DNA of 57,336 bases, filler included, from Porpidia crustulata (Eukaryota), in assembly GCA_964255105.1 (NCBI GenBank). It is 6 parts of 6 records of this genome, joined end to end, with 100 filler letters (N's around TTAATTAATTAA, not from the genome) between each part and the next. Parts side by side here need not be neighbours in the genome. Positions count along the whole stretch, not along the records: positions 38,331 to 47,786 come from CAXUWE010000944.1; 5 more parts are not named here. One strand, given 5' to 3'. Every line of letters begins with the position of its first letter. Position 1 is the first letter of the stretch. The notes beneath the pieces are model-generated. The model did not search any database, was not told the origin of the DNA, and saw only the letters and a list, made by a program, of their open reading frames with translations. Of the stretch, positions 19,173-47,886 are shown one piece after another. Made by a program: the position numbers and the translations under genes.

Positions 19173-19246
19173 TTCATCCTTTAGAAAATCAATCTATCGG
19201 TTCCACCAAAGCCTTTTGTTCAACAAATTCCATTAAAGTTATGTAA

Positions 19247-22230: not shown

Positions 22231-22340
22231 CCTTCTTCCGCCGATCTTCGATTACGTAAGACCGCTTCTTCCGCCGGTCTTATTTAGACCGCCTTCCTCC
22301 GCCGGTCTTATTTAGACCGCCTTCCTCCGCCGGCCTTACT
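22231..22340. promoter_or_regulatory. 28-bp tandem repeat forming two CGG-N11-CCG (Gal4-type) Zn2Cys6 sites in the MFS/TF divergent promoter
   Basis: Units start at about 22258, 22285 and 22313, with a partial copy at 22231. CGGTCTTATTTAGACCG occurs at 22275-22291 and 22303-22319. Confidence 0.6.
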
Positions 22341-22400
22341 CTTGATTGACTCTACAATTCAAGTTGGCGATTCAGCCGGCTGCTATATTCTGCTCCAAGC

Positions 22401-24924: not shown

Positions 24925-25361
24925 AGGTTGTCCAGCGATATTTGTAGAGGTATGGCGATCTTGCTTTATGTAAGCATTTATGATTAGATGTGGCACACTG
25001 AAATAAGATAGCGACAAAGACACCGATCAAAAATGAGAGTATCACTACGCCTTGTTGCACTTGCGGGTCAACACGCTCATCTTTTTGCTGGTTACTAAGG
25101 TCATTGGAGAGATTATCCCTCGACCTTCGTTCGTCCCACTCGCAATGCATGGGGTGGCTCCTGGATATTTCTATATTCGCATCAGCTTGATCTAATAACA
25201 CAGAGTCGTTTTGGACCTCTGATACTCTAAAGGTGACTTTACTTGATATCACACTGGCAGCCGAGGATTTGGACAAGCACACTGTTTATATTCTCTAGGA
25301 TGCCTGGTCTTATTCTACTATATAATACATCCCTCCTCCCTTCAAGTCCCGTATAGACGCT

Positions 25362-26952: not shown

Positions 26953-26983
<31 letters not shown>

Positions 26984-27076
26984 GGGCAAACGAACCGTCA
27001 CTTTGTGTCCGGCTCTACGAAGTCCGATGGCGGCACTGAAGCCAGCTATCCCAGCGCCCACGATAATAACTTCCAT
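25362..27076 (-). CDS. FAD-dependent monooxygenase (salicylate hydroxylase-like), multi-exon
   Basis: [12 protein letters not shown] (GxGxxG), IVAADGVHS (DG motif), [11 protein letters not shown] (GD motif) and [10 protein letters not shown]. Exons are separated by GT-AG introns. Confidence 0.9.
26941..26981. repeat. (AAAG)n/(GGAA)n microsatellite in FMO intron 1
   Basis: gaaggaaggagggaaagaaagaaagaaagaaagaaagaaag read directly from the sequence. Confidence 0.85.
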
Positions 27077-28042
27077 TGTCCTAATCAGTCATAAACCTCA
27101 ATCAATTATAAATATCCTCTACTCCAATTTCCCATCCCTCGCCCGTAACATCCCCTCCATTGTATATCCAGAAATATTCCTAGGCACCATGTTATCTTCC
27201 ACAACCCCATCAAGCTAAAGCAGGAACCGCCGCTGCTAGCAATCTGACTCTGACTGTACTTCAGCTGCAGCCCGTACCTCCGTACCTCCGTAGACCCGCT
27301 CCAATTCCTAGCCATGCAGCATAGAATATGCCCCGCCGTACTCGCCGCACAGCATGCGGAGGTATCCAGAAGACGAAAGGATTTGGGATGGCGCAACAAA
27401 GAAACAAGCGTGTCTTCGGAAGAGGTCCACACCGAGTCCAGCGGAGGAGGCCAGCCGAAGAAGCACCACAGCGCCTATCGTAGGAAGAAATATATCGCCC
27501 GTAAAACGCGACAAAAAAAATAACGAAGGTGAGATACGAGATGTTGCAGTGCATCATGCGGGTGTGATGTTGCGTGCGGCATGCCTATCCTATGGATGAC
27601 TTACGGATATTACGTGGGAACGGTAGGGACTTTTGTTGTGGTTGTGTAATGTCCATCCTCATGGGCAAGTTTTGGTTTTATTAATCGCTGGTAAGTATCT
27701 GCGCTTGGTCTGTCCCGCTTGTTTGTTTCCCGACCGTTGATGATGATTTTACATTATGCTCGATGCCGTTCCAGTGCCATTTTGTATACCTCGCATTGGC
27801 TTATTGTTTCGATTATTCATCGACCTGAAGTTGTGGTTTCGGAAATTAATCTATCTGGGATTTCCATGCAAGGAGGTTTCCGAGCCTGTGAGCCTCTTGA
27901 GTGGTCTCATTGTACGTAACGTTATGGTTGTCAATATTATCGGTAGCAGGAGGTAAGAAAGGAATGCTAAAACAATTACACCACAGTCCCGCTGTAGCGA
28001 TACATGGCCAAGACGTCCATCACACAAACAAAACCCCGTCCC

Positions 28043-28652
28043 TTAAATCCCCGAATCATCCTGCACGCGAACCGCCCCACTAGTCCGACCCCCATTCCAC
28101 GTTGTACAAGTATCCTTCAGAACACCCAAACTACCAGCATCCATCAAACCCGAAATCTCCTTCTCCCTCTCCACGAACTGCACCGCGAACCCCTCACTCG
28201 CATGCCACGCGACATGGCAGTGCATGAGCCAGCTCCCCGGATTATCCATCCGAAACGCAATCACAAGATACCCGCCCGCGGCCAACGTCACCGTGTCCCT
28301 GCGCGGTGGGTTGGCGAAATTCAGCTTCACGGTCGAGGGCGCGTAGGCGCCGTTGCCCTGGGCGAGCACGAACGAGTCATGTCCGTGGAGGTGGATGGGA
28401 TGGTACGGGGAGGTGCCGGAGTGGTCGCTGATGACCCAGTAGACCCAGGTGTTGGGTGTGGGCAGCGGGAAGACGTTGTAGTCGATGGGGAAGACGGGTT
28501 GGTTGTTGGCGATGCGCAGGTTCGTGGGGTCGGACCAGTTGAGGTATAGGGAGGAGGAGTTGAGGGTCCATTGTAGGATGTTGGTGTAGTTTATGCCGAG
28601 TTCTAGAGATGAGGTGGTGCCGTCTCGGCCCGCATCGAGGGAGAGGTGGGGG
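28043..28652 (-). CDS. Laccase/multicopper oxidase, C-terminal part (5'-truncated at contig end)
   Basis: L3 HPIHLHGH and L4 HCHVAWHASEGF, NPPRRD, and the ascomycete laccase C-terminus DDSGI. Confidence 0.92.
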
Positions 28653-28752
28653 NNNNNNNNNNNNNNNNNNNNNNNNNNNNNNNNNNNNNNNNNNNNTTAA
28701 TTAATTAANNNNNNNNNNNNNNNNNNNNNNNNNNNNNNNNNNNNNNNNNNNN
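28653..28752. other. Artificial contig-joining spacer
   Basis: N run with central TTAATTAATTAA, 100 nt. Confidence 0.99.
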
Positions 28753-29089
28753 CTCCACAGCTACCCCACAGCCGCCATTTGGACCCTGCACATCATCATA
28801 CTAATCCTCACAAGGACCGCGATTGGAGAAACAGATGAGACTGATCGTCGTGCGTTTTAGACAAGAGCACCAAGACTAGTCTCATGTTGTTCTTTAATTG
28901 CGGGACAAGGCTTCGTCAATTCACAATGCTACACGGAGGAACTCGGGGGATCCGACCCTACCATTTCTCTTCCTCCCTCAGTCCTCTGTGCATCTCAAGT
29001 TTATACATGTTTGGCAATGTTTCGGAAGCTGATGTGCCCCCGAGCTAGTTGCACCACTAGCAGGCGAAATATCGAGTCGTTAGACTTCG

Positions 29090-29760
29090 TTCATGAACTA
29101 CTAGATACCTTATATCGGGTATGATCGTCCAGGATTCGACTAGAAAATTTAAATTCGAGAATGTATTAAATTCGTCGTTGAATCTCATTAATAATAATCA
29201 AGGTAATCGGAACTACGTTCAAGAAATTTGAATTCGAGAATTAATTAAAATAGAACTTGTGTTGAGATATACGATGGGCTGACTTAGGGTGAAAAGGGTT
29301 GTGGATTGAGTCGGTCTAGCTACGTGTCTATATATCGGAGGTCAGGTATCTTACTAGCGTAAGCACCCCGAACACCTAGTCGTAGGACCTAAATGCTCTG
29401 TTTTCAATAACTTGTTTAAATATCTACCGTAAAAATCGATTTTCATTAATTTAACTATTCAAGTAGATATATATATTAAAACTGTTAAGTACTTAGTAAC
29501 TAATTACAGAGTATTACAACATTCATTTTTCGACTAATAGTAAGTTGCAGCGCGTGCTGCGATAGTCCTACAGTCACGAAAAAATAAAATTTTATTGTGT
29601 TCGGGTTCTACAAGTAGTCATCCGTAGATACCGGTGACACAGATATATCGCGAACAATGTTTAATTAATTGTTTAAAGTTATTAATCCGTTAGTCTCTTC
29701 TACTTTCAATTCGTCGTACATGGTCTCATTTACAACTGGTTCAGTCAGTCCTTGAGTACA
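29090..29760. repeat. AT-rich, probably RIP-degraded repeat relic
   Basis: Abrupt AT/TpA-rich block with no ORFs and an internal duplication (aaatttRaattcgagaat at about 29144 and 29224), next to a very GC-rich ORF. Boundaries approximate. Confidence 0.45.
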
Positions 29761-29806
29761 TCTCGGCTACGTATCAATTCCTCCCGCTCCTTGCCGACCT
29801 CTAGAC

Positions 29807-30424
29807 ATGTCGGGTCTGTCATCACAAGCCCCCTGGCCTGGGGACTGCGAATGCTGGGCCTCGCTGATCCGCATCATCAGCCAGATTGAGGCAGCGGCTC
29901 CGGGGTCCCAAGCATCGCCATCATCGCAAGAACAGCAAGCGGCACCCTCATCAGACTCACGGCAGCCGCACCCCCCTCTCGCGCGCCACCTTCCCCTCGA
30001 CGAACGTCTCGTTCTCGGCGAACTCATTGTGAACCAGTGGGAGCTCCTGAACGGCTGCGCGCACTCGGCGTCGCACCTTGGACACAGGGGGCCTGCGCTG
30101 CTGCGGGTCGTGTGCGACGCCGTGGGGCGGGTGCTGACGCTCTACGAGCTGGCGGTGGTCTCGGCCGAGGACGCCCTGGCCGGACGGGCGTCGGTGGGCA
30201 CGCTGGAACTCGACGAGGCCGACGACGTCCGGGCTGTGGCGCGGGCGGCGCTGTCCTGGTCCACCGTCCGCTGCGGCGCCGTGCTGCAGGACATCGAGGA
30301 GGAGAGCCAAGACTACTCGGCAGAGGAGCTGCGGGAAGCCAACCACCCGGTTGTGAAGGATCTTACTGGTCGGACGCTTCGCTTGCTCGGGCAGGTGGAA
30401 AGTTGCGGTGGGGCGATCTTGTAG
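29807..30424 (+). CDS. Hypothetical 205-aa protein resembling the C-terminal region of AflR-type regulators; no zinc cluster
   Basis: Very GC-rich codon usage. CECWASLIRII...LPLDERLVLGELIVNQWELLNGC...VGTLELD pattern. Convergent with the AflR-like gene. Confidence 0.5.
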   Translation: MSGLSSQAPWPGDCECWASLIRIISQIEAAAPGSQASPSSQEQQAAPSSDSRQPHPPLARHLPLDERLVLGELIVNQWELLNGCAHSASHLGHRGPALLRVVCDAVGRVLTLYELAVVSAEDALAGRASVGTLELDEADDVRAVARAALSWSTVRCGAVLQDIEEESQDYSAEELREANHPVVKDLTGRTLRLLGQVESCGGAIL

Positions 30425-30810
30425 TCCAAGTCTGGCTCCGTGGATGTTCAGGCGCGTGGGTGGGACCAATGTTGTGTCACAGGTATGGAGGGCAAACAAG
30501 TCTAAGGTTATATGCGAGGCAAACATGAGGAATCAGGTCAGGCTCGAATTGCTACGAAATGAGAGCTGATGATATATACATGAGTGTGCGCCAGAGCGGA
30601 ACAATAGTCCCAGACCGAACCATGGTTCTAGACCTATATCGAACCGTCACACTACATGATTGACCTGTGAGCACTTTCTGCCGGACGGCCTGTTGACTCG
30701 CGACACGGCACTGAAGTCGTATAGCATAAAGAGCACGAAGCACTAAAGTGCAAACATCAAGGTTACTTGTGGTTAAGTTAATCAACATTCAGCCCGCATA
30801 TCCCTATGAA

Positions 30811-32094
30811 TTATCCCATAAGTACCAGGGCCCCCTGAAGACCCTTTAACCGCCTGATCAAGTTTTGTACAAGATCGCTGGCGGTACCACGCAGAAGGGC
30901 ATCACTGTCCCCCCAGTCCAGGATTCCGCGCCCAACATCGACCTGTGTCCGACCCTGTCTCTCCAACTCGCCCTGCATATCTAGGAGGGCGGCTAGCATC
31001 TTTCGAAATCGCACTTGGAGTATCGCTTTGATCGCTCGCGCCGTTGCCGGCATACCGAGTTCGTGGACCCCGAATCGTATCTCTGCCTTACCCCCGGGGA
31101 CGGGAAACACGCACGGCTGGTCTAGGAAGCCTCTGAAGCAGCGTTCAAGGCGACGTGCCTCATGATCATGTGCGGAAAAATTCGGGTCCATCGCCCTGGC
31201 GGATATGGCGCTGACCGTAGCATTGAATTTTCCTTCGAGCATCGAGACGACGCGCTCGGCAAGTAACGACAGAGTAAGTACAGCCCGGGGGTTGGCTGGG
31301 AGAAAACTCGGTCCCTCGCCGTACGATGCATGCTCACGGCAGGTGAAGATGCGATGTTTAAGTAGGCGGAAGTCCCTCTCAGCCCGGAGGACAAGCTCGA
31401 CTGAAGGCGTCGGCAGTCCGGCAGCTACGGACTGTTCGAGACTCGCGAGCGCTGTGAGAACGGCGATATAGCCTTGATCGGCCATTCCTGAGCCTGGAGC
31501 ATTCGGAACCGCTGCGTCGCTGACCTGAAAAGGGTGAAGGGGGTTTCTCCACAAGGTTTCGGGAGAGTTTGATGAGGGTTGACCGAGGCCTTTGAACGGA
31601 TGGATGACCTGGCCGTCGTGACCAAGAGCTGCATCGACATGGCCCACTGGTCTAGAGTCGACCCCAACGGTAGCTTGCCCCGTAGTGGGAGCATTCCAGC
31701 CGGTGCTGGAGGTCGAAGTTATGCTGCTCAAGCCGGCCGTCGTCCGGGAGCTGCGGTCGCGAAAAAAGCTGCTACTATCTACACTTGGATCGCCAGACGC
31801 CGATGTCAAATCGGCCGTCAACCCAACTTCGTCCACGTAGTCATCGCGAACTGTCTCTTGCGAGGGAGCGAATTGGCTGCCCATCTTCCTCGGCCTGCCC
31901 ATGCGCCGAACCGGGCTATAGACGCAAGGAATGGCCCTGCTGACGCATTTCTTGCATGCTGGCTTGCCCTGACTACATCGGACCTTGATTCTTTGGCAAT
32001 GGTCGCAAGCCGCGCGATACCTCACAGGCTGCCGGCCTTCACCCGCCGTTGGTGATACTGGCGATGGAGATGCGTAAATGCTGAGGGTCGTCAT
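30811..32094 (-). CDS. AflR-like Zn(II)2Cys6 pathway regulator
   Basis: Intronless 427 aa with RAACDHCQRIKVRCSQGKPACKKCVSRAIPCVYSPVRRMGRPRK. Confidence 0.9.
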   Translation of the reverse strand: MTTLSIYASPSPVSPTAGEGRQPVRYRAACDHCQRIKVRCSQGKPACKKCVSRAIPCVYSPVRRMGRPRKMGSQFAPSQETVRDDYVDEVGLTADLTSASGDPSVDSSSFFRDRSSRTTAGLSSITSTSSTGWNAPTTGQATVGVDSRPVGHVDAALGHDGQVIHPFKGLGQPSSNSPETLWRNPLHPFQVSDAAVPNAPGSGMADQGYIAVLTALASLEQSVAAGLPTPSVELVLRAERDFRLLKHRIFTCREHASYGEGPSFLPANPRAVLTLSLLAERVVSMLEGKFNATVSAISARAMDPNFSAHDHEARRLERCFRGFLDQPCVFPVPGGKAEIRFGVHELGMPATARAIKAILQVRFRKMLAALLDMQGELERQGRTQVDVGRGILDWGDSDALLRGTASDLVQNLIRRLKGLQGALVLMG

Positions 32095-32773
32095 TGCGAC
32101 TAGTTGAAGTCGAACATCTTGTAGGGCGATGGCGGTTGATAGGATCGCAGGTGGACAGTGAGTTCATAGGATGGAGCTGTTCACCACTTTGTCTCGCCCG
32201 AAGCTGAACACGCTGAGGTAACGTACTCAGTCACCTAATCTATCACCTTCTGGACCACTGCCCCACCCCCAACACGTATTTTCGGCAAAACACCACAATA
32301 CTACCCAGCCACGGCAGCTATCAGGGAGCAAGAATTGTCCGAGTCATCAAAGCTATTCATAACAATAAGTTCCTAGATACACGTACTCTCCCCATCAACT
32401 TCGCTAAATTCTGAAATCGGGACCAGAATTTTGAATACAGCGATGTTGAGGCTGTCCGCCTTTGAGACCCAATAAACATCCTGCTTGCTACCCACCAAAC
32501 GATCGTATTATTGTTTCTGTACCTACCTACCTTACCTACGTCTTGATCGCTCGGCCCAAGGACCTTTTTCCCCGACGCATTTATAGCCGTGTACTTGATG
32601 TCATTTACTGCACTGGTCACGAGGCACACACCTGATGTACGTGGAGGAGTCGACCAGCTTACAAACAGTCTATGGGTAGTCTACGGAATGATTCCACCGC
32701 TGCCGTCGCTCGTGCAAGATCAAACCATCTCGAGAGCCCCTGGGGAGTTGCTGTGTTGAAAGTCAAATCCCTT

Positions 32774-34777
32774 TCAGACACTGCCCGCGACGTCTTGGCT
32801 TGTCTTGTTGCTTGCATCGCTTTCATGAACCTCGGTCTCGACTACAGCCTCCGCAGGAATGAGGCTACCAGGCCACTTGGCAATGAAGGACGACAGGAAG
32901 GCCATGCCGAAAAGGGCGATCACCATAGCCCAGGCACCCCGGAGGCCAACCATCCACGCCTGGCGCACGCCGCGTAGAGTTTCGTTATCAAAGTTGTCTC
33001 GAATGCCGTACGCTCCCATTTGGAGCACCGCGTGAGACTCAACGCTAGGTGCGTACGTTGCTAGGTTTTTCAGCAGCAGGTTGTTCATAATCGTGTCCGA
33101 CATGGCGATCGCGATGACAGAAGAGAAGAATTGGGTCACTGCCATAGAGTTAGAACACGAAGCGAGCAATGTTACTGGAGCCACACTCACCACAAACCAC
33201 CGAGAGACCAAGTGCCTTGTCCCGCAAAGCGCTCAGAGCGCCAGCGATGATGACGGGGAGCTGCACTACCAAGCCGACTCCAAACCCAAGCACAAGCTGA
33301 TATCCAATCTGCTCGCCCAGCCCTGTGTCGAGGTCAAACTTATAGACGAGGCCGGCTCCGATGGTGGCGAGGACTGCGCCTACGATCATGAAGGGCTGGA
33401 ATTTACCGATCTTGCCAACAGCGATTGAAGATGCCATTGAGGCAGCAGCTAGAACAGGCGTGTCAGTCCGAGGCTATTCTATCGAGGGCAAGGCACTGGG
33501 TTGCTGTACTTACACACCGAGAGAATGATGGGGATAGTCCTAATTCCACTGTCTCTAGGAGACAGACCCTTGATGGCCTGAAAATAGACAGGAAGGTTGT
33601 AGACGATAGAGAAGTATGCTCCATACAAGCTATCATCCCGTCCATTACTCAACGTCCCACGAAGGAGCTGGCAGGGGGATGACCTCACAAGAAAACGTAG
33701 GCACAAGCCGCTGTGATACCCCGTATGTGAAGGATCCGCAAAATCAGCATTGCGCGGTCCTTCTGGTACCGTTCGTTGACTGCGAAAAGAATGGTCATCA
33801 AAGCCCAACCCACAAGCAAGCCGATGACGGTCGGAGTGTTCCACACCTTTGTCACGCCTCCCCACTGCAGTGCGAACAAGAAGCAAAGCATAATCCCAAC
33901 AAACAGGACGAAACCCAGCGGGTCAAAACTCAGGAACATCTCACGAAGCGGTGTTTTGTGTGTGGCTTTGACATGGGCCGGAGTGCGGAAGAAGAACAGG
34001 ATGCATGCTGCCGCCACACCGCCAATAGGCAAATTGATGTAGAAGCACCACCGCCATGTGACCGAATCCGTGAAGACGCCACCTAGCAGTGGGCCGATGA
34101 CGCTGGCGATACTGAAGACGGTGCCGACACCACCCACAATCGCAGGCACTTTTTCGGGAGGTGCGATGAAGGAGGCGATTGTGTAGCAGCCCAGGTTAGT
34201 CCCAGCGCCACCGGCTCCCTGGATGGCACGCCCAACAATGAGGGCTGGGCTGTTGGGCGCCAGGGCACAGATAAGGCTGCCGATCTCAAAGACTGAGATG
34301 GCAGCGAGAAAACTGGCCCGGACGGAGAAGGAGTTGTAACACTTGCCCCAGAATGATTGGAAGGCCGCTAGTGTAAAGAAGAATGCCGAACCATACCAGG
34401 CAACGTCGGCGAGCGAGTTGAACTCGGTGGTGATGACGGGAACAGCGGTCGAGATGATACTCTGAAGGCGGTCTTAGTCACTATACACAGATCATCCGAG
34501 TCGCAGGTAAGATTATGTTGACACTTACGATATCGAGTGCAGTCTATGATGGGTATGTTAGTCAAACGGTCCCGAGGGCAGGATAATATGAGGGTTTGCG
34601 TGGCAGACTTACCAGAAACGAGCTGAGCAGGAGACCGAGAATGATGGTGGCCTGCTTAGCTGTTGAAGGGTATACAATCTCCGACTCTGTCTTCTGAGGC
34701 TGAACTGGCTCATTGCTAGGCTGAATCCAAGGTTGAGCCCTCGGCAGCTCATACGGTTCTTTATCCATGACAGACAT
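32774..34777 (-). CDS. MFS efflux transporter (DHA2 type), multi-exon with a 15-nt microexon
   Basis: STAVPVITTEFNSLADVAWYGSA, GRAIQGAGG, TWRWCFYINLPIGG and YNLPVYFQ. Microexon TALDI at 34543-34529 is bounded by TAG and GTAAGT. Confidence 0.9.
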
Positions 34778-35069
34778 GGTGACTTTGGACCTGGTCTAAG
34801 TTCGAAATTCTGATATGACCGCGAACTATGAGTGCAGCGTCGAACAGGACAAGATAATACAACAGGTCAAGTACTCAAAAGAGCAAGTGCATGACGAGCA
34901 GTTGAAAAAACACGCGATGGCTTCAAGGTGTAGAGAGTCGCCAGCAGTTCTACTGTGCTAAGGCGGTTGGGGTCCTTTAGTGACAAAGCAAAGATGTTTG
35001 TAAGTATCACCCAAGGAAAACATTCTTTCGATAGCCTCAATAGCGGTTGGTGACAACAATAAATTCCCG

Positions 35070-35196
35070 GTGTGTGTGGTTTATGGAAAAGTGCCCGGTA
35101 TAAGTGCAGGGGAAAGTACCCGTGAAAAAGCATGATATATAATCAGCGGGCACTTTCCCCTACACCAACACCGGGTACTTTCCAATGCACACACGT
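35070..35196. mobile_element. MITE-like relic: long imperfect inverted repeats with internal GGAAAGTRCCCG direct repeats
   Basis: Left arm tggaaaagtgcccggtataagtgcaggggaaagtacccg (35084-35122) matches the reverse complement of the right arm (35147-35184), tggaaagtacccggtgttggtgtaggggaaagtgcccg. The right end reads ...CACACGT/A, like a pogo/Fot1-type TIR end. Confidence 0.6.
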
Positions 35197-35239
35197 ATCG
35201 TATCAATCATTTTCTGCAGGTTTGGCTGAATTATGAATC

Positions 35240-37250
35240 ATGAAATCGATTTGGCTTTCGTTTATTGACTGTTTAGACCCGGCCATGAGCCGAGCGGTTG
35301 CGAAAGTCAATTTGAAGACGACAGCTGGCGCAATATTTGGTGGCGAGTCTGCTTATCCACTACACCCAGCGTCTCTGAATTCCATTTTTCAGCTGGGCCT
35401 CATTGCCTGCTACGGTGGCCAGATCGAAAACGCTCGGAATGCTTTTGTACCCATCCATTTGTCTCGCCTGTACCTCAAGCACGGGAACATCGAAAGTGAC
35501 TACGTTACTGCCACCATCCATGAGGAGCTTCGCGGCCTCCGAGGCGCGTATGTTAAGCTGCAACTGTCAAACCAGGCGGGCGGTGTGGTGCTCGACATAG
35601 ACAGTCTACGCTGCATCAGCTATCTCAATGGCAAGTTATCCGAGAAACTCCAGCCGAGCCAATTTAGAAGTCCACTTGCCAGACTGGTATGGAAGTCCGA
35701 CATCCGTATGATGAACAATGCCCGATGTCGCCAAATATTCCCGCCTCCCCAAGAGAATGGCGATCAGGCTCATCTCTTCCCAGTCGTGAACAGGTTCGCG
35801 TCAGTCATTCTTGTCGATATTTACGAGAATTTGACCAACAGAGATGATGCACCTGAGCCCATCGATGACCCGGGTCACTTCGCTGCTTGGGTCAGAAGGC
35901 GCGTCGAGAGCAGCGATACGCCCCAGATAGCCGATGCGAAAAAGATGTCCAGCCACGATCGGTTGAAACTGCTGAAGGAAATTTACTCTCGGAAAGATGA
36001 GATTGTCGAGATCAAGATCGCGAAACGACTGCATGAGAACATGGAGACAATCTTACGCGAGCAAAAGCCTGCGCTTGAGATCTTACCTCAAGACAGTCTC
36101 CTAACGGCGCTCTATGAGACGGGGCTTTTCATGACGAGCGCCTACCCGCAGCTGTTCAATATATTTGAATCTCTTGGGCACGCCAACCCGAATTAGCGGA
36201 TTTGGGAGCTAGGCGCCGGTTCAGGCGGTGCAACGCGCGTTACGTTAAGGGCCCTCGTCGGCGCCAATGGCATCAAGCGATACAAGGACTATATATTCAC
36301 CGACATCTCGGCAGGTTCCTTGGCATCGGCGCGCGAATCCCTGGCCGAGCACCTCGATGTCCACTTTTCTAACCTGGACATCGAGCTAGACCTCCGACCC
36401 AAGGATATGAGGCCTCGTACGACGTCGTTATCGCGTCCCAGACCCTGCATGCTACTACGAGCATTGCGAATACGCTGGAGGACTGTCGGTGACTTCTAAA
36501 GCCTGGAGGAAAGCTGGTCCTAGTCGAGAACACCCAGAATGACGATCTGGTTGGCATCATATTGGGCACATTGACCGGATATTGGCATGGAATTCTTGAC
36601 AGGCGGACCAACAGCACGTTCCTGCGCCGTGAGGTATGGGACGTGGCACTTCGGGGCTCTGGCTTCTCGGGTGCAGAGCTGATTCTTTGCGACCATCTGG
36701 AGCCTCACATCACAACAACCGTCTTTGTGTCGAAATTTGTGCCATCCGAAGGTCCAGCGACTCGAGACCCAATTCTCAACCCGGCGACATCAAGAGTGCA
36801 GCTTTTATATAACTCCAGCCAAGCTCCGGCCCTGCTCTTTCAAATCTCTAGGAAATTGGAGCGTCGAGGCACTCGGGTCGAGATGGCCTCCCTCGGGGAC
36901 GCTGCCGGCTCTATTTCCCCCAACGCACCAGTGGTGAATTACCTAGACGAGTTGAACCTCTCGTTGGACGCGGATGAAGAGCAACTTGAGCGCTTCAAGG
37001 ATCTTGTTTCTAGCTTTCAGAGCTTGCTCTTGCTTACATCCGGTGGCATAGCGAAGGGCCGCAACCCCGACACTTCCTTTGTTTCTGGGCTGCTACGAAC
37101 TCTGAAGCCCGAAAAGCCCGGTATTAGGTTTATGTCCGTCGACGTTGATGACTTCGAGCCTGTGAACGAAAATCTCGTTCGGTGCTTGGTGGATCTGGCA
37201 TCGGGTCTCCAGCAATACGATGTTGGTAAGAGGAAGGACAGCGAAGGATT
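35240..37250 (+). pseudogene. Internal fragment of a highly reducing PKS (DH, C-methyltransferase, linker), pseudogenised
   Basis: DH segment YPLHPASLNSIFQ. MT segment ANPN*RIWELGAGSGGAT...YIFTDISAG with stop at 36194-36196, a frameshift near 36390 and TGA near 36490. No KS/AT upstream and no KR/ACP downstream. Confidence 0.85.
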
Positions 37251-38230
37251 TGGGTGGAGGGTTATTTTGCAGTCGATCCTCCAGCCTGTCTACATTCTTC
37301 TCAGTCTTCTCATTCTCTTGCTCGACCCCATGTGCCCTCGTTCTCGCACCTCCAATCCCCATTATCTTCTTTTCTTTCTTCTCAAACGGGCTTGAGCCCC
37401 TAGGGCTCAAGCCATAAAGTCCGACTTCTCCACGTCATTTGATTCAAAGTTTGATGTAGGTGTGTTCTTGCATTTCATACGTTTACCGCGATTTGGATCA
37501 GTCGAGTTTCCACCGCAACTCTTTGATTTCGTGGTCTCGATGGATGATGCCCCTCCGCCTCATTCTCCTATTATCATATCTTGCTATCCACCCATCTTCT
37601 TCACATTCTCACTCATTTGAATTCCACATATTCATTTCTTCTACTTCTCTTACATACTCGCAATGAGTTTCAAATAAAAAAGACATCCCGATCTACACAT
37701 TGGCATGATGTTGAGATTTTTGTATGGTTTCTGATTCTACGATTCTGTCGTTTTCCTTCTTTGAATCTTGATTTCGCATCGAGAATTTAAGACACTTCAT
37801 CACATGCGGCACGTCGGCATTGTCGAAGTCTCGATTTTCATGACACATTCGCCCTTCTTCACTCTCTTCATTTTAACTTTCATTCTTTTCTCCTCAATTT
37901 ATCTCATTTCTTTCTAATTCTACTCTTCTCTCAATCTTTCAATTTTCTTATACATTTCGTTCACTTCCGATTTTAGCATTATTTTCTTCTTCTTTTTCTT
38001 CACGATCTTCATCGTGACTTCTTCTCTATTCTTCATTCATTCGTCTACAAACCTCACTCAAATCAATCATCATCGTCACAAACCCACTCGTCTCTCTATC
38101 TCTCCCGCTTCAACATTTCTCATATCCACTATTCTATCCTCATCCCGAGCTGCGATTTCATTTCTCGGGGTCACTATTGTTTTTCATGTATATTAAAAGA
38201 AATATATAAAAAGAATAAGAGATCTTTGAT
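37250..38230 (-). mobile_element. Degenerate repeat, possibly the 3' end of a non-LTR retrotransposon, truncating the PKS relic
   Basis: Strong pyrimidine skew and stop-riddled frames. Perfect 11-bp hairpin GGCTTGAGCCC-CTA-GGGCTCAAGCC (37389-37413), followed on the minus strand by a GAAGAAAGAAAAGAAG tail. PKS similarity ends abruptly here. Element class is inferred. Confidence 0.5.
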
Positions 38231-38330
38231 NNNNNNNNNNNNNNNNNNNNNNNNNNNNNNNNNNNNNNNNNNNNTTAATTAATTAANNNNNNNNNNNNNN
38301 NNNNNNNNNNNNNNNNNNNNNNNNNNNNNN
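38231..38330. other. Artificial contig-joining spacer
   Basis: N run with central TTAATTAATTAA, 100 nt. Confidence 0.99.
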
Positions 38331-39255
38331 GCACAAACCTCTATTTTACCCCATCCCTCTCCTCCACCTACGCTCAAACCGCCGAATAACGAGAAGGGCT
38401 GCTTATAAATGTGCTCTGGGCGTGTTTGAATGAGAGTTTACAATTTGGCGAAAAATGAATCAAATCGCGGGGAAGTCCCAAAAGGCAAATACTGCTTTTG
38501 GTACTGCAACCATCACACCCATTGAATTAGCTGTCAATACTTGATATCGTAGATTGAAAGCTGTGCATATCATTTGCCCTCAAACTGAACATGAAGCTAG
38601 GAGGATCCTGTACTACTTCGTTCATCCTGTGTGGCCTTGACTCAAGAAATCAAAGGAACAGCGCCGGCTGGACGTTTCATGCAAGATTGGGAGAGCGGCG
38701 TGTATATAGGCTAGATTTTTGATAGAGCCATTCTGATACTAAGTGTAATTTTGTTCAATCCCACAGACGAGACCGGCGTGGTTCGAGCTGAATACGGACG
38801 CACCCATTTACAAGTAGATCGGTCATAAACCTAGCATAGACTTGGCACATTGTGCGACACTAAGTGCGTTTCATTGGCTTTGATTCTGGGTATGGATGGC
38901 TGGAGGGTGGAGTACAAGAGTATCTTGGCACCGTAGGTATGCAGTATACGTGTGAATGCTGGTATTGTACAACTATGCAAACGCCCGGTATAAGCGAAGA
39001 GCTTAGTTATCCAGGCTGTGGCTTGCTCTATCATTCATCTGGGTATCATCCCCGCATACCATCTCAATCATGATGGACGTGGAGATCGAAGATTGTATAA
39101 GTCCTTAATCATAACTGCTCACCACTCTTCGTTCGATCAACTCCGCCTCAACAATTCCTCCTTCAATCGTAGCACAAGATTGGTCATAGCAATTTCCCTA
39201 TAAGAGCATTACTCACCCACAACCTCATCCTTGCTACACATAAGCCAACTCTACA

Positions 39256-40240
39256 ATGGCTCCACTTACTTGGCTAGTGACTGACTGTTCCTCCGGCTTT
39301 GGTGAAATCTTTGTGCACAGTCTTCTTGCCCGTGGTGACAAAGTTATTGCAACAGGCCGGAAGGCTTCTGAGCGTCTCGTTCATCTCCAGAATACTGATG
39401 CCAAAATCCTCGATCTGGATACCACCGCCTCTCAGGAGGTGCTGAATGCCAAAGTGAAAGAGGCTGTTGAATTGTTCAATGGCATTGACGTGCTGGTGAA
39501 CAACGCCGGCTGGTGAACAACGCCGGCTACGTGGAAGCAGGTTTGGCAGAGGAAGTGAGGTATTGCAGCGTTCTCAAATCTTTTTATCCATCGTCTATCT
39601 AACATAACTTGCAGCCATGAAAAATAGCTAGATCAGATCAACACGAATCTTTTCAGCGCCATTGATATGACACGAGCTATTCTCTCCTACTTCCGCGAGA
39701 AACGATCAGGAAAGATTGTGTTCGTCGGCTCTTATGGAGGCTGGTGTGGCGAAGTCGGAGCAGCTCCGTACTGTACCGCCAAGTTCGCGTTGGAAGGTCT
39801 GTTGCACGCTGCAGATCCTGTATCAGAAGTGCACATATGCTTACGGCTTGAATTTCAGGCTATGTCAAATGTCTGCAGAAAGAAGTATCGCACTTTAACA
39901 TTCAGTCGATCATTTTCGAACCCAGCTACTACCGCACCAAGATCTTCTCCGCTCAGAATTGTAAAGTGTCATCTCCCACGCATGCCGACTACAACGACAT
40001 CTTCGCTGCTATGGTAGCTGGCGTTGAGGCCATCGACGGAAATCAACGCGGCGATTCGGTCAAGTGTGTGGAGCGTGTGATTGACGTGGTCAAGTCGGAG
40101 GGCATGGCTGCAGGAAGATCAATGCCCAAGAGACTGCCGCTAGGATCGGATACGATGGAGTTTGTGAGGGCAAAATGCTTAAGACGCTGAAACTTTGCGA
40201 TGAGTGGAAGGATGTGATTTGTAATACGGATTTGGAGCCA
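39256..40240 (+). pseudogene. Short-chain dehydrogenase/reductase pseudogene
   Basis: WLVTDCSSGFG (TGxxxGxG altered), IDVLVNNAG and YCTAK catalytic motif. Lesions: a 17-bp tandem duplication (39493-39509/39510-39526) causing a frameshift, an in-frame TAG at 39625-39627 and a frameshift near 40180. Confidence 0.85.
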
Positions 40241-41138
40241 GAGAAAGGAAAGGAGAACAAGGAACGCGGCCAATACAGCGTGTCGGCTCCTAGAAGAGTT
40301 CGATTCTGGATNNNNNNNNNNATTCTGGATATGGCTGTTTGTACGGATTGTTCGGCAACATCATCACTCTAGAGAGTAATCGTGTGCGCGAAGCGAATTT
40401 GCTGCCATAAGCGCCATATGCGCTACACATCTCCCAATAGCCGATTTAGAAGTAGAGCGTGTCTTGATGATCCACGATATCCAGAGGTACCTTACCCTGG
40501 CCTCCCTGTCAGCATAGTATCGGTGTGTCAACAAAAGCGATTACATACGTAATTTTCATGCTTGCATTTGGTATTCTGCTAGCTTAATATCCGTTTTGAC
40601 ACAAATCGACGCAAGGCGTGGATTCGGCTTGTCTGCTACATGAAAGAGACTACAGTGTGTATAGAGGGCCGTAGTATGCACATGCCGCTCCGTTTCGCAT
40701 CTGACCACAGCTTCTAGGGTGTCGCGGTCCTCAGCATCCGGTAGGTCTTGGTCCTCAGCGTCCTTCTGACGCTATGAAAGCCTCGTATGATGCATTCTTT
40801 CCCTTTCTCTTTGCACTTCAATATTCCCGTCTCTTGTCTTCACTTATTATTGCGTAAATCGACATGTACTTAGGCCAACGCCTTCTCGCATCACACCAAT
40901 AGCAGAAACTCTTGAACGAAATCGGTTATACTTTGCGAACTGCCACTCGTTTGAAGGTTTTGTTCAAGGTTGTGGCCAGTTACAGCTGCTTTTCAAAAAC
41001 TGCATGAAGTATGGCTTCGGGATTCAGCATCAGTGCAAGAATTGGGGCCAGCTTGTAGACTGGACAGCGAAATGGCAGTAATTGAGAGTGTCTGATCTCG
41101 GCTGTCCTCTGATTTTTCACGCTATCAGATTGCATGTA

Positions 41139-42512
41139 CTATGGTTCATCAAACCAACCGACTTCTATCAAAGCCAGAGAGGACGACGGCAATCTCTTGA
41201 TATCTATAATACTGAATCTCGAGTCTGCTTTCTGGACTAGACTAGTCCAATCCTCTAGATCGCGTTCCTTCGCGTTAAAGACTGCTTTCATGGCCAAGTC
41301 GTGGCATCTAAGATAATATGTTCAGTCGTAATGCCATCAACCAGCTCGAAATGTCATCACGTACAGTCCATTTCGCTCCTGATATTGCGAGACTGTGCCA
41401 GGAGCCGGCAGACAAAAGTCGTTTATTAAAATCTTTGTACCAGTCTTGAGCGCAGGAATCAGGTTCTTCAGGATACGGAGACAGTATCTATCTGACCAAT
41501 CGTGGAGGATCATACGCAAAAAATATATGTCGGCGCCTATGATTTTCTGCTTTGTGAAAAAGTCGTGAAATTCAAATTTCACCTTGCTGAGAACCTTGTC
41601 ATTCCACGTATCCCGTGCAGCATTAATAACTTGGGGCAGATCTTGCACAATGACTTGAATGGAAGGAAACGCCTTTCCTAGTTCTAGCGCAACTGCCCCA
41701 TCAGAGCCACCAACATCAACCACTACTCCTTTGCCTACCGTCGCCCAATCAAAGGCATTGATGATATTCCTGATTTCGAAACCGGGTGCCATCGAAAAGA
41801 ACCGCATGGCATCCGTAAATCGTTTTGCACGACTGGGTGAATCAGCCAAGTCGACGAAAAAGGGGTTCTCTGCCCCACTTGCTATATTAAAGGCCGTCTG
41901 TGAAGGTTCTTCCGATCCGGGCCACTTGGTCATAGCATCCACAAACCTAGTACTCGCCGGCCACATATCGCTACACGCCTGATCGAGGAATTCTCGTAGC
42001 AGAGGCACTTGAGCTATTGCTTTAGACGCTGCTGTATGTGCAATAAGATTATTTTCAGATATTCTGAAGATTCGATTTGTAGTTGCATGACGAAGGATTC
42101 GGCGTGTATCGTCTTCGTCTAACTGGCACGCATGGGCTATTTGTGTAAACGACGCCTCCTCGCCAATTGGAAAGCAAGACGGCATTCGGAAACGGGCGAT
42201 AGCATGAAGACTGATCAGATTATGCTATATTCTCAGCTTACGATAGATAGGAACAATGGGTCCCTTTACCGTACTGTCGATCTGATGGAATACAAAGCTC
42301 ACCGGACCGAGCATGAGGGCCTGGAGTTCATCCGTAGCCTCTACCACTGCATTCGAAGATGCGAGTATCGTGTCCGGAAGTTGCAGCTGCGAAGGTATGC
42401 TGATGTCGAAGTCAAGGGGCGGCAAGCCCTGGGAATTGATGAAGTCGTCCACTTTTGCAGTATTAAGCTGAATCAGACACGCGAGCTCTGCGATCCTGCT
42501 CATGGGTGCCAT
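41139..42512 (-). CDS. SAM-dependent O-methyltransferase (Methyltransf_2, OmtA/OmtB-like), 3 exons, 423 aa
   Basis: Exons 42512-42270, 42224-41365 and 41307-41139 splice in frame. Motifs VVVDVGGSDG, IVQDLP, HDFF, ILHDWSD and NAKER. Confidence 0.92.
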
Positions 42513-43090
42513 TCTCTCGGTCTGATAGCTGTCGTAATTCTCAAATTTCGAAGAATTATGCAGTATTGGGACGTCCAAATGTCAGGGAATGGAGTAGCCG
42601 TTGGTAACAGAGTCCTGTTGCAATCCCCTCGCCGCGTCAAGTTGCCCACACAGGCGGATCTGGTCGGAACAAAAATCTCCATTATATTCGGCTTCGGGTT
42701 GAACTTCTGCATGAGTAAGGCTATGCAAGGTTGATTATGTGAACATTGTGTGTTAGAGGTGCATTATTGGATGAACCTTGCACCAGTCGCTAATCTACGT
42801 GTAGGACCTACTTGTGTACTCCAACAACTTCGACAAGCCGTCTTGCGTTGCTTTGATAATAATTAGCCTATTCCATTTCTAGTGGGTATGAAAGGTGAAG
42901 CAATATTGTTTTACGGGGTGCTCCATCATGATGCCAAAAAGCCCTATGCATTAGGTTGATTGTTGAAGTATTTTGCTCTCTCTATGTATTCCAAAATGAG
43001 CCTTCCCTGTATGGTTTGTTCTCTATCCACATCTTGTGCACACCAGAATCACTATAGAGCTTCCTTCCATAGCTCGACAAGCAATACTAC

Positions 43091-43404
43091 TCAGTCGTCG
43101 GTGTATGCGTCGGGGTAGACGATCTCCGAATCGCGGTCAAATTCGGGATAAACAATATTGTCATCGTCGGTGCCAAAGTCGGGGTACACAATATTGTCAT
43201 CGACGTCTGTTGCCGCTATACCAGTCATTCCAGACGATGCTTGGGGAAGCCTACTACTAATGATACGTCGATGTACCACTATGTCACGACCAGTCAGTCG
43301 GGTTTATGAAGCAACACATCGGGGAATCTACCATCGGGCTTGTACACCGGTGCTGCGTACACGCAAAGACACATCGTAGCTAGATAGAGTACGGAGAGCT
43401 TCAT
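43091..43404 (-). CDS. Putative fungal RiPP precursor: signal peptide plus three acidic IVYP repeats, 86 aa, 2 exons
   Basis: Exon 1 43404-43332, 53-nt intron 43331-43279 (GTAGAT...CTGAC...CATAG), exon 2 43278-43091. Product: MKLSVLYLATMCLCVYAAPVYKPDVVHRRIISSRLPQASSGMTGIAATDVDDNIVYPDFGTDDDNIVYPEFDRDSEIVYPDAYTDD*. Divergent from the DUF3328 gene. Confidence 0.85.
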
Positions 43405-43486
43405 GATGATCATCCAATACTGATCAGTGACGGATTGCAGGGGATATTCTTGGGTTGATCAACAACCAACAACGGGGAATTGTCTC

Positions 43487-43492
43487 TTTATA
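43487..43492 (-). promoter_or_regulatory. Candidate TATA box of the precursor gene
   Basis: TATAAA on the minus strand about 85 bp upstream of the ATG at 43404. Confidence 0.4.
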
Positions 43493-44025
43493 CATAACAA
43501 ACCACAATAAACCGTTGTCATCAAGCTGCAGGGAATGAAAGATCGCAATTAGGAAGGTCCAAATGGTCCATACACGGTGTTCTCAAGGTTTGGGGTTTTG
43601 TATGAGCTTGGCCGGTTTACACAGGGCGAGGGCGGTGTTGTCCAAACTCGACCGAAGAATTCGTCCAATTAATCGGCACTGATCCCATCTACCTTTGACA
43701 TTTCAAGGCAAGAGTTGATAAGACTTGCTTTTAGATTTCTCTTCGGGGCCGTAGGCATCTAAGTGGTTGATTTCCTTACTGGGGCATATGCAATACAACG
43801 CTGCAACTAATTCCCTGCAACCAGTTCTACATGCGGTGATTCAGCTTGACATGCTTCTCCATTACAGCTATACAGCATACTCACCTAGTGTCTGCCATTT
43901 CTCGGACAGACCCAAGTCTTCTTGGGTAAGTACTAGACGTGATATTTACCCGAATTATCTGAGAATTCATGGACTTTGAACGTTCCTACCTTCAGTATAC
44001 CTCGAATTTCTTCTGATATTCCCGG

Positions 44026-44952
44026 ATGACTCCTTTCAGGTACAAGCCAATTCTGTCCACGGACGAAAAGGTTGAAGGGGGATTCGAGGAAGAAAGATTG
44101 GACCAACCGATCAAACCCAGAAAACAAAGATTGAATTTGAGCTTTCTCTTCCACCTGGTGCTGCTTGTAATCTACACCACAGGCAGTTATCTTATCATAC
44201 GGAAGGCAACTTTTCACTGCAATCAGAGAGACCATGGTATGCCAATCGATTGCCCGACAACTTAGCATCGTATCGCTAAAGTCTCCGCAGTCTTTGCCGG
44301 CCTAGCCATCAAGTACAAACCCCAACTCTACACCAAGTTCAACGAAAGCCCTTTTGCTGGCCCACCATCTGTCGAAACCGACACGGCGTGGCACGCTCTC
44401 ATGGGAAATATGAGCATCCGGGTGACCAAAGCGGAACTTGACTCCCACGGGCAAAATTCTGTCGAACTCCCTTCAGGGGGTTATCTTGCTTGGCTTGGTG
44501 TATTTCACGAGCTACACTGTGTCGTCAGTATGACCGCTCAAGAAGCTGCTAGTTTCAGTGGCCACCAGTCAGCTACTGACTACTACGGATATAGAAAATG
44601 CTTCGTCAATGGAGCTACAGAGAGCATTACCATCCCAACATGACGGCCCACGACCGTCACCATCTAGAAGTACACATAGGTTGGTCTGCTCGCTCCCATC
44701 TGGGACCTTCTAACGCCCATCCCAGATCATTGCATTGACTGGTTGCGGTCCGCCGCAATGTGCCACGCCGATACCTCAGCACTGGCAACTTTCAAATGGG
44801 ACAAAGGCCCCAAGCCGATGTTGGACACCAAACGAGTGCCACATAGATGTGTGGATTGGGAGGAGATGATCTCGTCCCATAAGAATCGCAGGGTCAGCCA
44901 CGAGGAGGTGGCCAGTATGATCCCTCCCGCTTCGGCTACGGCCGACCACTAG
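44026..44952 (+). CDS. DUF3328 / UstYa-family oxidase, 4 exons, 251 aa
   Basis: Exons 44026-44236, 44291-44523, 44595-44679 and 44726-44952 (756 nt, in frame). N-terminal TM helix (LNLSFLFHLVLLVIYTTGSYLII), FAGPPS..TDTAW, VFHELHC and HIDHC (two HxxHC motifs), then IDWLRSAAMCHADT and HRCVDW. Confidence 0.93.
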
Positions 44953-46280
44953 ATCTCGAGGTCAGACCTCACTGTGTGCGATGAAAAGCGCGAATAGAAG
45001 CGAACATTGTCAAGTGACGCTGTGTGGATATGCACAGTCACCAGGGTGAATTTTCGACCGGAAACCATAAGTTGTGCAACTGAAAGTGCTTTGCAGGAAA
45101 TGAGCTGACCGTGTATTGAAATCTTTGCATTGTGTACGTAAATATGGTAATTTTACCATCCACTAATACTATAGAGTATGCCGCATTACCCTCTACCTAG
45201 TCCCACATATCTTTGTTTGCGTAGGTTCAGCCTGTAATATTATCTAAACGTCGTGAGGATCGAAACTGATGGAAACCCTCATGATTATCTACCGGCACCA
45301 TAGGCATCCTTCTAATCATAATATGTCTCATGTCTGTCTATCTTGTTCATGGTCGTTTTGATGCCCGAGGTCAGCATACATGATGCAGGCATATCTTCTA
45401 GCACATAGTATCATCTCATCAGCCCACTATGCTCCTACTCGTAGCAGATATCTCATTCGATAAGGCTACATCAACTGAGATGCATATCCTTTTTCGGGTG
45501 GCGCAGATCTGGTCACTCGTTCGTTTTCTGTGCCCTGTTCTTGCAGGATCAAACGTGCTGCAATTTTATTGTCCATACAGCGTGTCTTCACGTCTTCCTC
45601 AACATAGGCGATTTACGGCTCTTACAAGCAGAGTTCAGCTAGCAGTTGCTAGCTACTCACACGTGGCATTTTTTTCAAAATCGTCTTACTGGCAGTTGTT
45701 CCTCCTTGTGGTGGGTAGTATTACCTCGAAAAAAAGGATGACTATTCAATTTTGCTTGCTTTGGTCAGCTTCAACGCTTTTGTACCCGCATAAGACGAGT
45801 GATTTTCTCTATCCATAAAAGCGATTAGTTGACATTTTTAGGTGCCGCAGATGGGATGACAAAGGGGCTCGCATAAAGGCTTCTGTGTCTATGATCACGG
45901 CTGTTTAGTCACTGTAACATCTTTGTATAAGGACATGCATAGTCTGCATCATTATGGTAGTACATGACAGCGCCTTGGGCCAAGATTGTGTCACACGGCT
46001 GAGACTGCTATAAGCCACGGCGAACGTGATCGCAACAGCAATCTTGGTTTCGTTCAATAGTTTAGTTTTTGACGATTGCTAGCAACGCCTATCGCCCGGA
46101 CTGCTATTGAATGAAGCCAGGATGTAGGTCCTTTCCCCGCCGATGACGCGTTTCTAAAATAGTCTTGGTCAAAGTACGAGTGTCTGGAGCTGTGTGGTAC
46201 ACAAAGGCGCCCGAAAGGTCTTGCTGATTTCCCATCCCAACGGTTTCGATGAAATCGGCAGTACTCGGTTCTTTTAAACT

Positions 46281-47786
46281 ATGTATGGCAGTTTGAAGAA
46301 GCCGCTTCTCGTTGCTCTGACGCTGATTTTTCAGCTTGGACCTCGATTCGTCAATGGTATGTACCTCGTCATGGGAGCCATGTGTTATCCATTTCTGGGC
46401 TGGTACCTTTCTCAGCTCTCTCATGGTAGGTATCCCGGAGCTATTCAAGGATATCCTGGAAAAACCCCTTCCACATTCCTTAACCGGCCGCTCTGGAGTA
46501 ATCAGACCCTATACTTTTATTATTACCCGGGGTTTTATCGCGCCTGATGGCGTTAACAAAAGCGTTCTACTTGTGAACAATGCTTTTCCAGGTAGTTTCA
46601 ATATTTTTCCTTCTTTTCCCTTTTCCCTTTTCCCCTTCTTTATTCTGTCAAATCGCTAAGGCCTTTGCTTGAATTTGTAAGGTCCCCTATTGGATGCAAA
46701 TTACGGCGACATCTTTCAAATCACCGTCATCAACAATATTTCTGGGCCTGAGGAAGGGACTCTCCTTCACTGGCATGGAATTACTCATTGTGGATCTCCT
46801 TGGTATGATGGCGTTCCAGCTGTTGACATGTGTCCAATTGCGCCTGGAAAGTCCTTCACCTATACCATCAAGGCAGAGCCCTATGGTACCTCATGGTGGC
46901 ATTCGCACAATTCTGCACAATTGGCGGATGGACTGATGGGTCCTATGATAATCCATGGGTTTGGTCTCCAAGTTCATAATCGAGATGCTGCTCGCTAATT
47001 ATAGTAGTCCGATCGCTGATGCATACGACGTCGATATTGGACCAGTTATTTTGGTTGGTCAAGCCGCTCTCTCAATCTTTCGGCATTGATGTTTATTAGA
47101 GTGACCACTATCATCTGGATTACAAAAGTTACATAGAAGAGTCCAGCGGTATCCCTTTCACAGTCCCCTTTGCAGACAGTAACTTGATTAACGGCACGAT
47201 GTACTCTACCTACCTATGACTGATAGGGTATAGTGCTCTATCAAGCTGATCAATAGCATAGGTTCTTCGACTGCTCTCTAGCAACGGACGGCCAAGCTTG
47301 CGTCCCTAATTCTCCAATATCAAAATTCTACTTTCAAACTGGAAAAACGTACCGGCTCCGTCTGATCAATGCCGGGGCTGATGGAATCCAATGTTTTTCA
47401 ATTGATGGACACAATATGACTGTCATAGCTAACGACTTCGTCCCTGTCGTTCCTTACCAAACAGATGTCGTGAGTCTGGGAGTAGGCCAACGCACTGACA
47501 TCATAGTAAAGGCCACAGGCAAAGACACCGATTCCTTCTGGATTCGCTCCAACATTACTACGATCGGAGCTCTAGCCCCTATACCACCACAACCCTACGC
47601 CCTTGCAGCAATATACTACTCTAAAGCAAATACTAGCGCCTTCCCCCAGTCTACCACAACCCCCCTAACCCAGACGTCCTGCGGCCAAGTACATCTTCAT
47701 CTCACTACCGCTCCAACCCCCTAACCTCCTCCAGATCACCCTCAAGAACGCCACCCCCCGTACCCCCATGAAGCCCCCAACCACCC
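46281..47786 (+). CDS. Laccase/multicopper oxidase, N-terminal part (3'-truncated at contig end; first exons uncertain)
   Basis: GFIAPDGV...NNAFPGP, L1 [20 protein letters not shown]2 [18 protein letters not shown] and GQRTD, across several GT-AG introns. Confidence 0.88.
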
Positions 47787-47886
47787 NNNNNNNNNNNNNN
47801 NNNNNNNNNNNNNNNNNNNNNNNNNNNNNNTTAATTAATTAANNNNNNNNNNNNNNNNNNNNNNNNNNNNNNNNNNNNNNNNNNNN
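47787..47886. other. Artificial contig-joining spacer
   Basis: N run with central TTAATTAATTAA, 100 nt. Confidence 0.99.

Follow-up and report, generated by a model that had tools for sequence, protein, structure and literature searches.

The DNA analysed here is a 57-kb stretch of 57,336 nucleotides from the Porpidia crustulata genome assembly GCA_964255105.1, hereafter the window. On one of its contigs (CAXUWE010000944.1, positions 38331-47786), a small gene for a tri-repeat peptide stands head-to-head with a gene for an oxidase of the UstYa/DUF3328 family. We consider it probable that this locus encodes the substrate and the enzyme of a dikaritin-like ribosomal peptide pathway, in which the precursor is of an atypical kind. 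The peptide gene and its pairing with UstYa go beyond chance: 20 homologues of the peptide occur in other sequences, and UstYa is again its neighbour in further loci.

The window is not one molecule. Unlinked contigs from a fragmented assembly were sorted by size and joined end to end (the pieces include ones of 9488, 9484, 9480, 9478, and 9456 bp), and five linkers, each consisting of N44 + TTAATTAATTAA + N44 and acting as a six-frame stop, occupy 9489-9588, 19073-19172, 28653-28752, 38231-38330, and 47787-47886. Since the pieces are separate contigs, the order of genes on either side of a linker says nothing about which genes are neighbours. The four genes singled out in the initial annotation, which encode an O-methyltransferase (OMT), the small peptide, UstYa, and a multicopper oxidase (MCO), were all found where it had placed them, within the single 9.5-kb piece at 38331-47786. 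Its claim that they lie on one contig also held, as a gap-free stretch carries all four genes and an independent assembly of one DNA run recovered them on a single contig of 7425 nt. That run, the only public one to contain the stretch, probably represents the source sample. Its assembled contigs cover 38354-40288 and 40359-47757, the second with zero differences, and they end close to the end of the piece with no bridge to another contig.

The candidate precursor gene occupies 43091-43413 on the minus strand, as delineated by sequence reading, intron enumeration, and comparison with homologues. Its start codon is the ATG at 43413 or that at 43404, the latter (MKLS...) being more likely, and its stop codon is at 43091-43093. 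The signal-peptide-like region and the repeats are read in different frames from separate exons: exon 1 ends at 43332, with a donor GTAGAT at 43331, and exon 2 encodes three units of the form D-D-x-I-V-Y-P-(D/E), the final one ending in YPDAY. Ten possible GT-AG joins restore the frame. One of them is the 53-nt intron proposed initially (43331-43279), which has a perfect CTGAC branch site and would yield a peptide of 86-89 amino acids; another joins this donor to an acceptor at 43216, for a 116-nt intron and a peptide of 65-68 amino acids. The homologous gene at L001, a related locus from a metagenome scan, is also split. Its exon 1 comprises 24 codons plus one nucleotide, followed by a donor GTATGT and a 115-nt intron with a CTAAC branch site and the ending ACAG, and its exon 2 starts three codons ahead of D-V-D-D. 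The window gene likewise has 24 codons plus one nucleotide before GTAGAT, and the acceptor at 43216 reproduces the exon-2 start of L001. Because position, phase, and exon-2 start coincide with those of the L001 intron, the conserved intron is more likely the 116-nt than the 53-nt one, although the latter is possible as an alternative form. The donor of the initial model is therefore kept, and the acceptor is probably located 63 nt further on.

As judged by eye, the N-terminus of the peptide begins with basic residues, continues with about 13 hydrophobic residues as a core, and reaches a site of small residues ahead of a conserved Ala-Pro, an arrangement that recurs in eight to nine full-length homologues. 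It might thus function as a signal peptide. No Pfam family matched the gene product. The initial description of a small spliced gene with a signal-peptide-like start and three repeats proved to concern a real gene under selection, with 20 homologues.

The homologues define a peptide family of remarkably constant design. A search with the repeat exon returned 11 candidates, every one of which was a homologue (E 1.3e-18 to 6e-8); those with a named source come from Usnea florida, Stereocaulon virgatum, and Hymenoscyphus fraxineus, all annotated as hypothetical proteins. A profile search over 1.84 billion protein representatives gave 29 matches, of which 14 were retrieved and 12 longer multi-stretch matches were left out. 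The 14 retrieved sequences comprised nine family members, one uncertain case (P0079), and four unrelated repeat proteins, bacterial ones with D-D-N-I-V-W-G repeats among them. The nine added members are short, group in a clade that has diverged further, and close their units with Y-P-E-P; together with the first 11, they bring the family to 20 homologues. All 20 contain exactly three Y-P-(D/E) units. Within the units, the D at position -5 never varies, nor do the Tyr and the Pro; I or V stands at position -2 in 59 of the 60 unit positions, position -1 is mostly V or I, and a second Tyr follows the last unit at +4 in every homologue. The repeat exon of the window is intact, with zero replacements at the invariant positions. 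Conservation in spacers such as D-R-D-S-E almost equals that of the units themselves (family alignment A3). Across 38 codons compared between the window and L001, 13 are identical, 19 have synonymous changes alone, and 6 carry a replacement, a pattern that shows strong purifying selection over the whole tail of the peptide. The other 20 of the 21 loci from the metagenome scan were dropped as unrelated, having matched over 18 residues at 61%, which leaves L001 as the sole relative from that scan. The bacterial-looking sequences with many D-D-N-I-V-W-G repeats (P0067, P0075, and P0080) scored against the fungal D-D-N-I-V-Y-P profile, and this likeness is probably a chance resemblance of acidic repeats.

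The partner gene at 44026-44952 on the plus strand encodes a UstYa/DUF3328 oxidase of 251 amino acids. The spliced model has four exons (44026-44236, 44291-44523, 44595-44679, and 44726-44952) separated by GT-AG introns of 54, 71, and 46 nt. The Pfam search proposed for the spliced protein was positive, with PF11807 matched above the gathering score on two exon open reading frames (ORFs; E 2.9e-12 and 8.6e-13). The gene had been described as intact with both HxxHC motifs, and the model indeed contains HELHC and HIDHC in addition to one N-terminal hydrophobic segment; an alignment of 26 sequences (A2) shows the two motifs to be conserved. Its closest comparison, the Logan protein P0012, shares 75% identity over 248 columns. 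It is the only UstYa match across the whole window by tblastn.

The start codons of the two genes are 612 bp apart, close to the distance of about 620 bp estimated initially, and the divergent region between them (43414-44025) is presumed to be a shared promoter region. This head-to-head layout is conserved in other fungi. At L001, the minus-strand UstYa gene runs from 5020 to 4246 and the plus-strand peptide gene has its ATG at 5737, about 720 bp away; the L001 UstYa has 60-71% identity to P0012 by tblastn and Pfam E-values of 3.3e-22 and 4.4e-11. In Stereocaulon virgatum, UstYa (N7G274_010243) and the peptide (N7G274_010244) have consecutive locus tags and are each assigned to a contig of 190,822 bp. 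The Logan proteins P0012 (UstYa) and P0004 (peptide) each have a longest contig of 5652 bp. The search for the pair in other ascomycetes, as had been recommended, thus shows it in all four loci with an assessable neighbourhood, namely the window, L001, Stereocaulon, and the Logan contig. Thirty-five UstYa sequences were placed in a maximum-likelihood tree, where the four paired proteins span a single subclade of 18 rows (support 100/98). The window, P0012, and Stereocaulon proteins form one branch (99/96), and the L001 protein is sister to a 14-row group with Sordariomycete matches (98/95). The tree predicts that the Sordariomycete relatives in this subclade might also have a peptide partner. 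The peptide family is a concrete candidate substrate for one UstYa subclade, with a new I-V-Y-P core and a different maturation logic.

Several points weigh against this reading. Splicing of the peptide gene is predicted from sequence, and the window donor GTAGAT deviates from the usual GTRNGT. The rate of pairing is drawn from four loci, with the genomic context of 16 of the 20 homologues not visible, and the Stereocaulon and Logan pairings rest on locus-tag numbering and matching contig sizes. UstYa homologues also act outside the pathways of RiPPs (peptides made on the ribosome and modified post-translationally), for instance in cyclochlorotine biosynthesis, according to the portions of the literature consulted. 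Dibasic Kex2 sites (KR, RR, KK, RK) occur in the repeat region of none of the 20 homologues, nor in that of the window peptide; in the 53-nt splice model, H-R-R appears in the leader only. Moreover, the copy number of three is fixed and the unit-specific spacers are near-invariant across classes, unlike known multicore precursors, which are variable and evolve concertedly. The initial annotation had envisaged a peptide derived from the IVYP cores; the lack of Kex2 sites, the three fixed units, and the conserved spacers do not indicate excision of small cores of this kind.

In the pathway that we propose, the small gene would produce a prepropeptide with a signal peptide for the endoplasmic reticulum (ER), probably cleaved ahead of the conserved Ala-Pro. 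The remaining acidic tail of about 40 residues would present three D-D-x-(I/V)-(V/I)-Y-P-(D/E) units, the last being followed by the second invariant Tyr. After the peptide enters the ER, it would encounter UstYa, which is predicted to be anchored by one N-terminal membrane segment with its HxxHC domain toward the secretory lumen and which might oxidise the invariant Tyr of each unit. Ustiloxin, phomopsin, and asperipin-2a suggest, by analogy, that an ether cross-link or a related oxidation with a neighbouring side chain would be the likeliest reaction. The third unit could provide a Y-x-x-x-Y pair, and an aliphatic residue precedes the Tyr. A predicted complex between residues 62-249 of P0012 (the lumenal part) and residues 21-68 of P0004 had a score of 0.01, which gives no answer and is evidence neither way. 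Because there are no Kex2 sites, and because units and spacers are individually conserved, two outcomes are considered for release: the product might be freed by another protease, or it might remain one multiply modified acidic peptide, and the two appear about equally likely. As a matter of conjecture, the OMT may methylate the oxidised Tyr, and the laccase-type MCO could oxidise phenols, a task that falls to the tyrosinase in the ustiloxin and phomopsin pathways.

The second outcome can be put in a stronger form, which we advance tentatively as one possibility: the mature product might be the whole acidic tail of about 40 residues, made independently of Kex2, modified three times, and served by a dedicated UstYa subclade. 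Such a product would be conserved from Lecanoromycetes to Leotiomycetes and, judging by the tree, probably in Sordariomycetes. If so, it would represent a new architectural class of fungal RiPP, large, modified at multiple sites, and of fixed stoichiometry.

A whole tail that is conserved, a unit number fixed at three, and a lack of processing sites would also fit a protein that functions as translated. The peptide could be a small, acidic, secreted protein of an ordinary kind, such as one that binds metal or the wall or is effector-like, which is left unmodified and neighbours UstYa through shared regulation or inherited synteny; three genome annotations that give a hypothetical protein are compatible with this. 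We regard this explanation as unlikely, as the divergent pairing has been kept across a well-supported UstYa subclade despite heavily diverged synonymous sites, and the invariant Tyr-Pro follows beta-branched residues, the kinds of residue that UstYa enzymes cross-link in known products. Less probable still is that UstYa acts with the OMT, the laccase, and a short-chain dehydrogenase/reductase (SDR) gene located nearby to tailor a non-ribosomal small molecule of the cyclochlorotine type, the peptide gene being a bystander. The OMT is of a small-molecule class, and an SDR and an oxidase are indeed close at hand, but the contig carries no non-ribosomal peptide synthetase, polyketide synthase (PKS), or terpene synthase, the PKS fragments at 35-37 kb being on an unlinked contig, and the peptide gene, not the SDR or laccase, is the sole partner conserved across loci. 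That the small gene is a decaying copy in the window genome, with its frame break a lesion rather than an intron, is highly improbable: the weak donor GTAGAT and the uninterrupted ORF of P0004, the closest relative of the window peptide, would suit it, but the roughly 116 extra nucleotides relative to intronless homologues are GT-AG-bounded and share position and phase with the canonical 115-nt GTATGT...ACAG intron of L001, which argues against a pseudogene or frameshift lesion, and the repeat exon is intact with its invariant positions unchanged.

A substrate-enzyme pair resembling those of the dikaritins thus remains the preferred interpretation, and it can be compared with characterised systems. 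Asperipin-2a is likewise made from a precursor accompanied by a single UstYa, and Tyr-Ile cross-linked dikaritin cores include YAIG and YVIPID. In the window, as in the dikaritins, a UstYa with two HxxHC motifs lies beside a small gene with a signal-peptide-like start and repeated Tyr units, and beta-branched aliphatic residues are close to the Tyr, reminiscent of the Tyr-Ile cross-linked cores in the descriptions used here. In contrast to the dikaritins, the window peptide has no Kex2 sites, three fixed units, spacers as conserved as the units, and a strongly acidic tail, and its order I-V-Y-P places the aliphatic residues before rather than after the Tyr. The locus therefore shares with dikaritins the UstYa, the two HxxHC motifs, and the repeats, and departs from them in the Kex2 sites. 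According to the sections of PMC7329392 consulted, DUF3328 proteins of known dikaritins form ether links from Tyr to Ile or Tyr side chains, a tyrosinase is needed for ustiloxin and phomopsin, and the characterised precursors of dikaritins and of Kex2-processed repeat proteins (KEPs) are processed by Kex2. Ustiloxin and phomopsin have an N-methyltransferase, whereas the window has one of the O-methyltransferase type. The ORFs scanned on the contig, which is only 9.5 kb long, contained no tyrosinase domain, and a partial MCO is present instead. The initial assignment to a dikaritin-like cluster thus stands for the UstYa, its HxxHC motifs, the repeats, and the recurrent pair, and it does not extend to Kex2 processing or to the laccase.

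KEPs, as outlined in the parts of Umemura 2020 (PMC7329392) that we used, share with the window a gene for a secreted repeat protein near a DUF3328 gene. The window peptide is nevertheless not a KEP, as it lacks the defining Kex2 sites, and without such sites the family cannot be found by KEP mining. A second point of comparison is offered by the lichen DUF3328 clusters, namely Clans R1 and R2 and the 'dikaritin homologs', of Lecanoromycetes with UstY signature genes carrying HxxHC (Pasinato & Singh 2025, PMC12048977, in the portions consulted). In Clan R1 as described there, an OMT is flanked by two UstY genes, and a tyrosinase and an FGE-sulfatase are also present. The window resembles Clan R1 in the OMT that accompanies a UstY-type HxxHC gene and differs from it, so far as that description goes, in having one UstYa and no tyrosinase or sulfatase match on its short contig. 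The same study, in the sections consulted, screened for Kex2 sites and tandem repeats in genomes that included Usnea florida and reported no repeat precursor; if our interpretation is true, the present peptide might be the precursor that has gone unseen in some lichen DUF3328 clusters. Screens for fungal RiPPs look for a signal peptide and Kex2-separated repeats near DUF3328, as described in the passages of PMC7329392 and PMC12048977 that we used. Current pipelines miss the peptide family because it does not pass the Kex2 filter, because its genes are very short and in many cases interrupted by an intron, and because they often lack an annotation or are called wrongly. The two-gene system, with a peptide of about 65 residues and an enzyme of 251 amino acids, is small enough for direct testing.

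The core had been described as matching no recognised one, and this was borne out by the literature searched. The synthetic peptide IVYPW has a role as an inhibitor. In the portions of the literature that were searched, IVYP appeared only within this peptide, in papers on dipeptidyl peptidase III, which is probably a coincidence. The xIVYP motifs were absent in a dikaritin context from the main texts searched, a search whose scope did not take in subscription journals or the supplements of other papers; they were also absent from the supplementary files of PMC7329392 (three files) and PMC12048977 (four files). The locus would accordingly be new as a variant of the dikaritin-type RiPPs, with good support for the gene pair and a chemistry that is proposed.

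Among the neighbouring genes, the OMT has the closest tie to the pair. The gene (41139-42512, minus strand; ATG at 42512, stop at 41139) encodes a class I, small-molecule-type enzyme matched by Methyltransf_2 (E 7.5e-30), and its model is intact, with two introns and about 415-423 amino acids. It lies 578 bp from the stop of the peptide gene, in agreement with the intact OMT about 580 bp downstream reported initially. Among solved structures, it comes nearest to natural-product OMTs from fungi and bacteria and to enzymes of the LepI type. At L001, a Methyltransf_2 gene (E 2.7e-14) adjoins UstYa, on the opposite side of the pair; its similarity to the window OMT is 54% over 44 amino acids and 27% over 109, and such low piecewise identity does not support orthology. 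An OMT beside the pair in both loci with a visible flank, together with the OMT in lichen Clan R1, makes its involvement plausible, and we take this as suggestive of a tailoring enzyme that belongs to the pathway. The proposal that the OMT is part of the cluster is thus favoured by its adjacency in the window and in L001, and it is weakened by the poor likeness of the two OMTs. A gene for a rhodopsin-domain (PF20684) membrane protein also lies at L001 (418-816, minus strand), about 2 kb past the OMT, and no counterpart was seen on the window contig.

The laccase-type MCO was located near the DUF3328 gene, as reported, although it is incomplete on the contig. The 5' two-thirds of the gene span 46281-47786 on the plus strand (start approximate), with Cu-oxidase_3 and Cu-oxidase domains (Pfam E 9.9e-30 and 4e-25) within 46681-47724 and the motifs HWHG and WWHSH. 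Of the three domains of a laccase, only domains 1 and 2 are on the contig and the C-terminal HCH copper site is absent there; Cu-oxidase_2 was not found downstream, where the contig stops at 47786 before the gene does. A truncated-laccase pseudogene was rejected, since the gene simply reaches the end of the contig. A Cu-oxidase_2 domain, the third of a laccase, is located at 28046-28651 on the minus strand (Pfam E 2.2e-40), at the end of the piece 19173-28652. The MCO segment 47257-47724 matches residues 235-333 of the PDB chain 3sqr_A and the Cu-oxidase_2 segment matches residues 378-580 of the same chain, which is the best PDB match of each; both fragments abut contig ends in compatible orientation. 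The two may be halves of one laccase gene, in which case the locus would extend to a piece with a Zn2Cys6 regulator (22350-24924) and a major facilitator superfamily (MFS) transporter (20106-21607).

Membership of the laccase in the cluster, which the initial annotation had included, is unsupported, as is that of the SDR: neither an MCO nor an SDR was found in the 4.2 kb past the L001 UstYa, and no link between DUF3328 and a laccase was found in the literature searched. The SDR gene (39244-40190, plus strand; adh_short, E 2.6e-11 and 3.6e-12) is set apart from the four-gene stretch by a scaffold gap of 10 N at 40312-40321. Given this gap and the separate contigs of the DNA run, its connection to the cluster is by scaffolding alone. 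Beside the gap, the run contig that begins at 40359 opens with 26 adapter-like letters, which we take to resemble a transposase library adapter.

A partnership of the OMT and SDR with the PKS-like fragments at 35-37 kb was rejected because the fragments are on another contig. These fragments (35237-37395, plus strand, in the piece 28753-38230) comprise a PS-DH domain, a stretch resembling a C-methyltransferase, and an NAD-binding domain like the ketoreductase of highly reducing PKSs. Ketosynthase and acyltransferase domains are lacking upstream, where an MFS gene is found at 33479-34473 instead, and the fragments might be either the relic of a truncated PKS or an unusual partial PKS.

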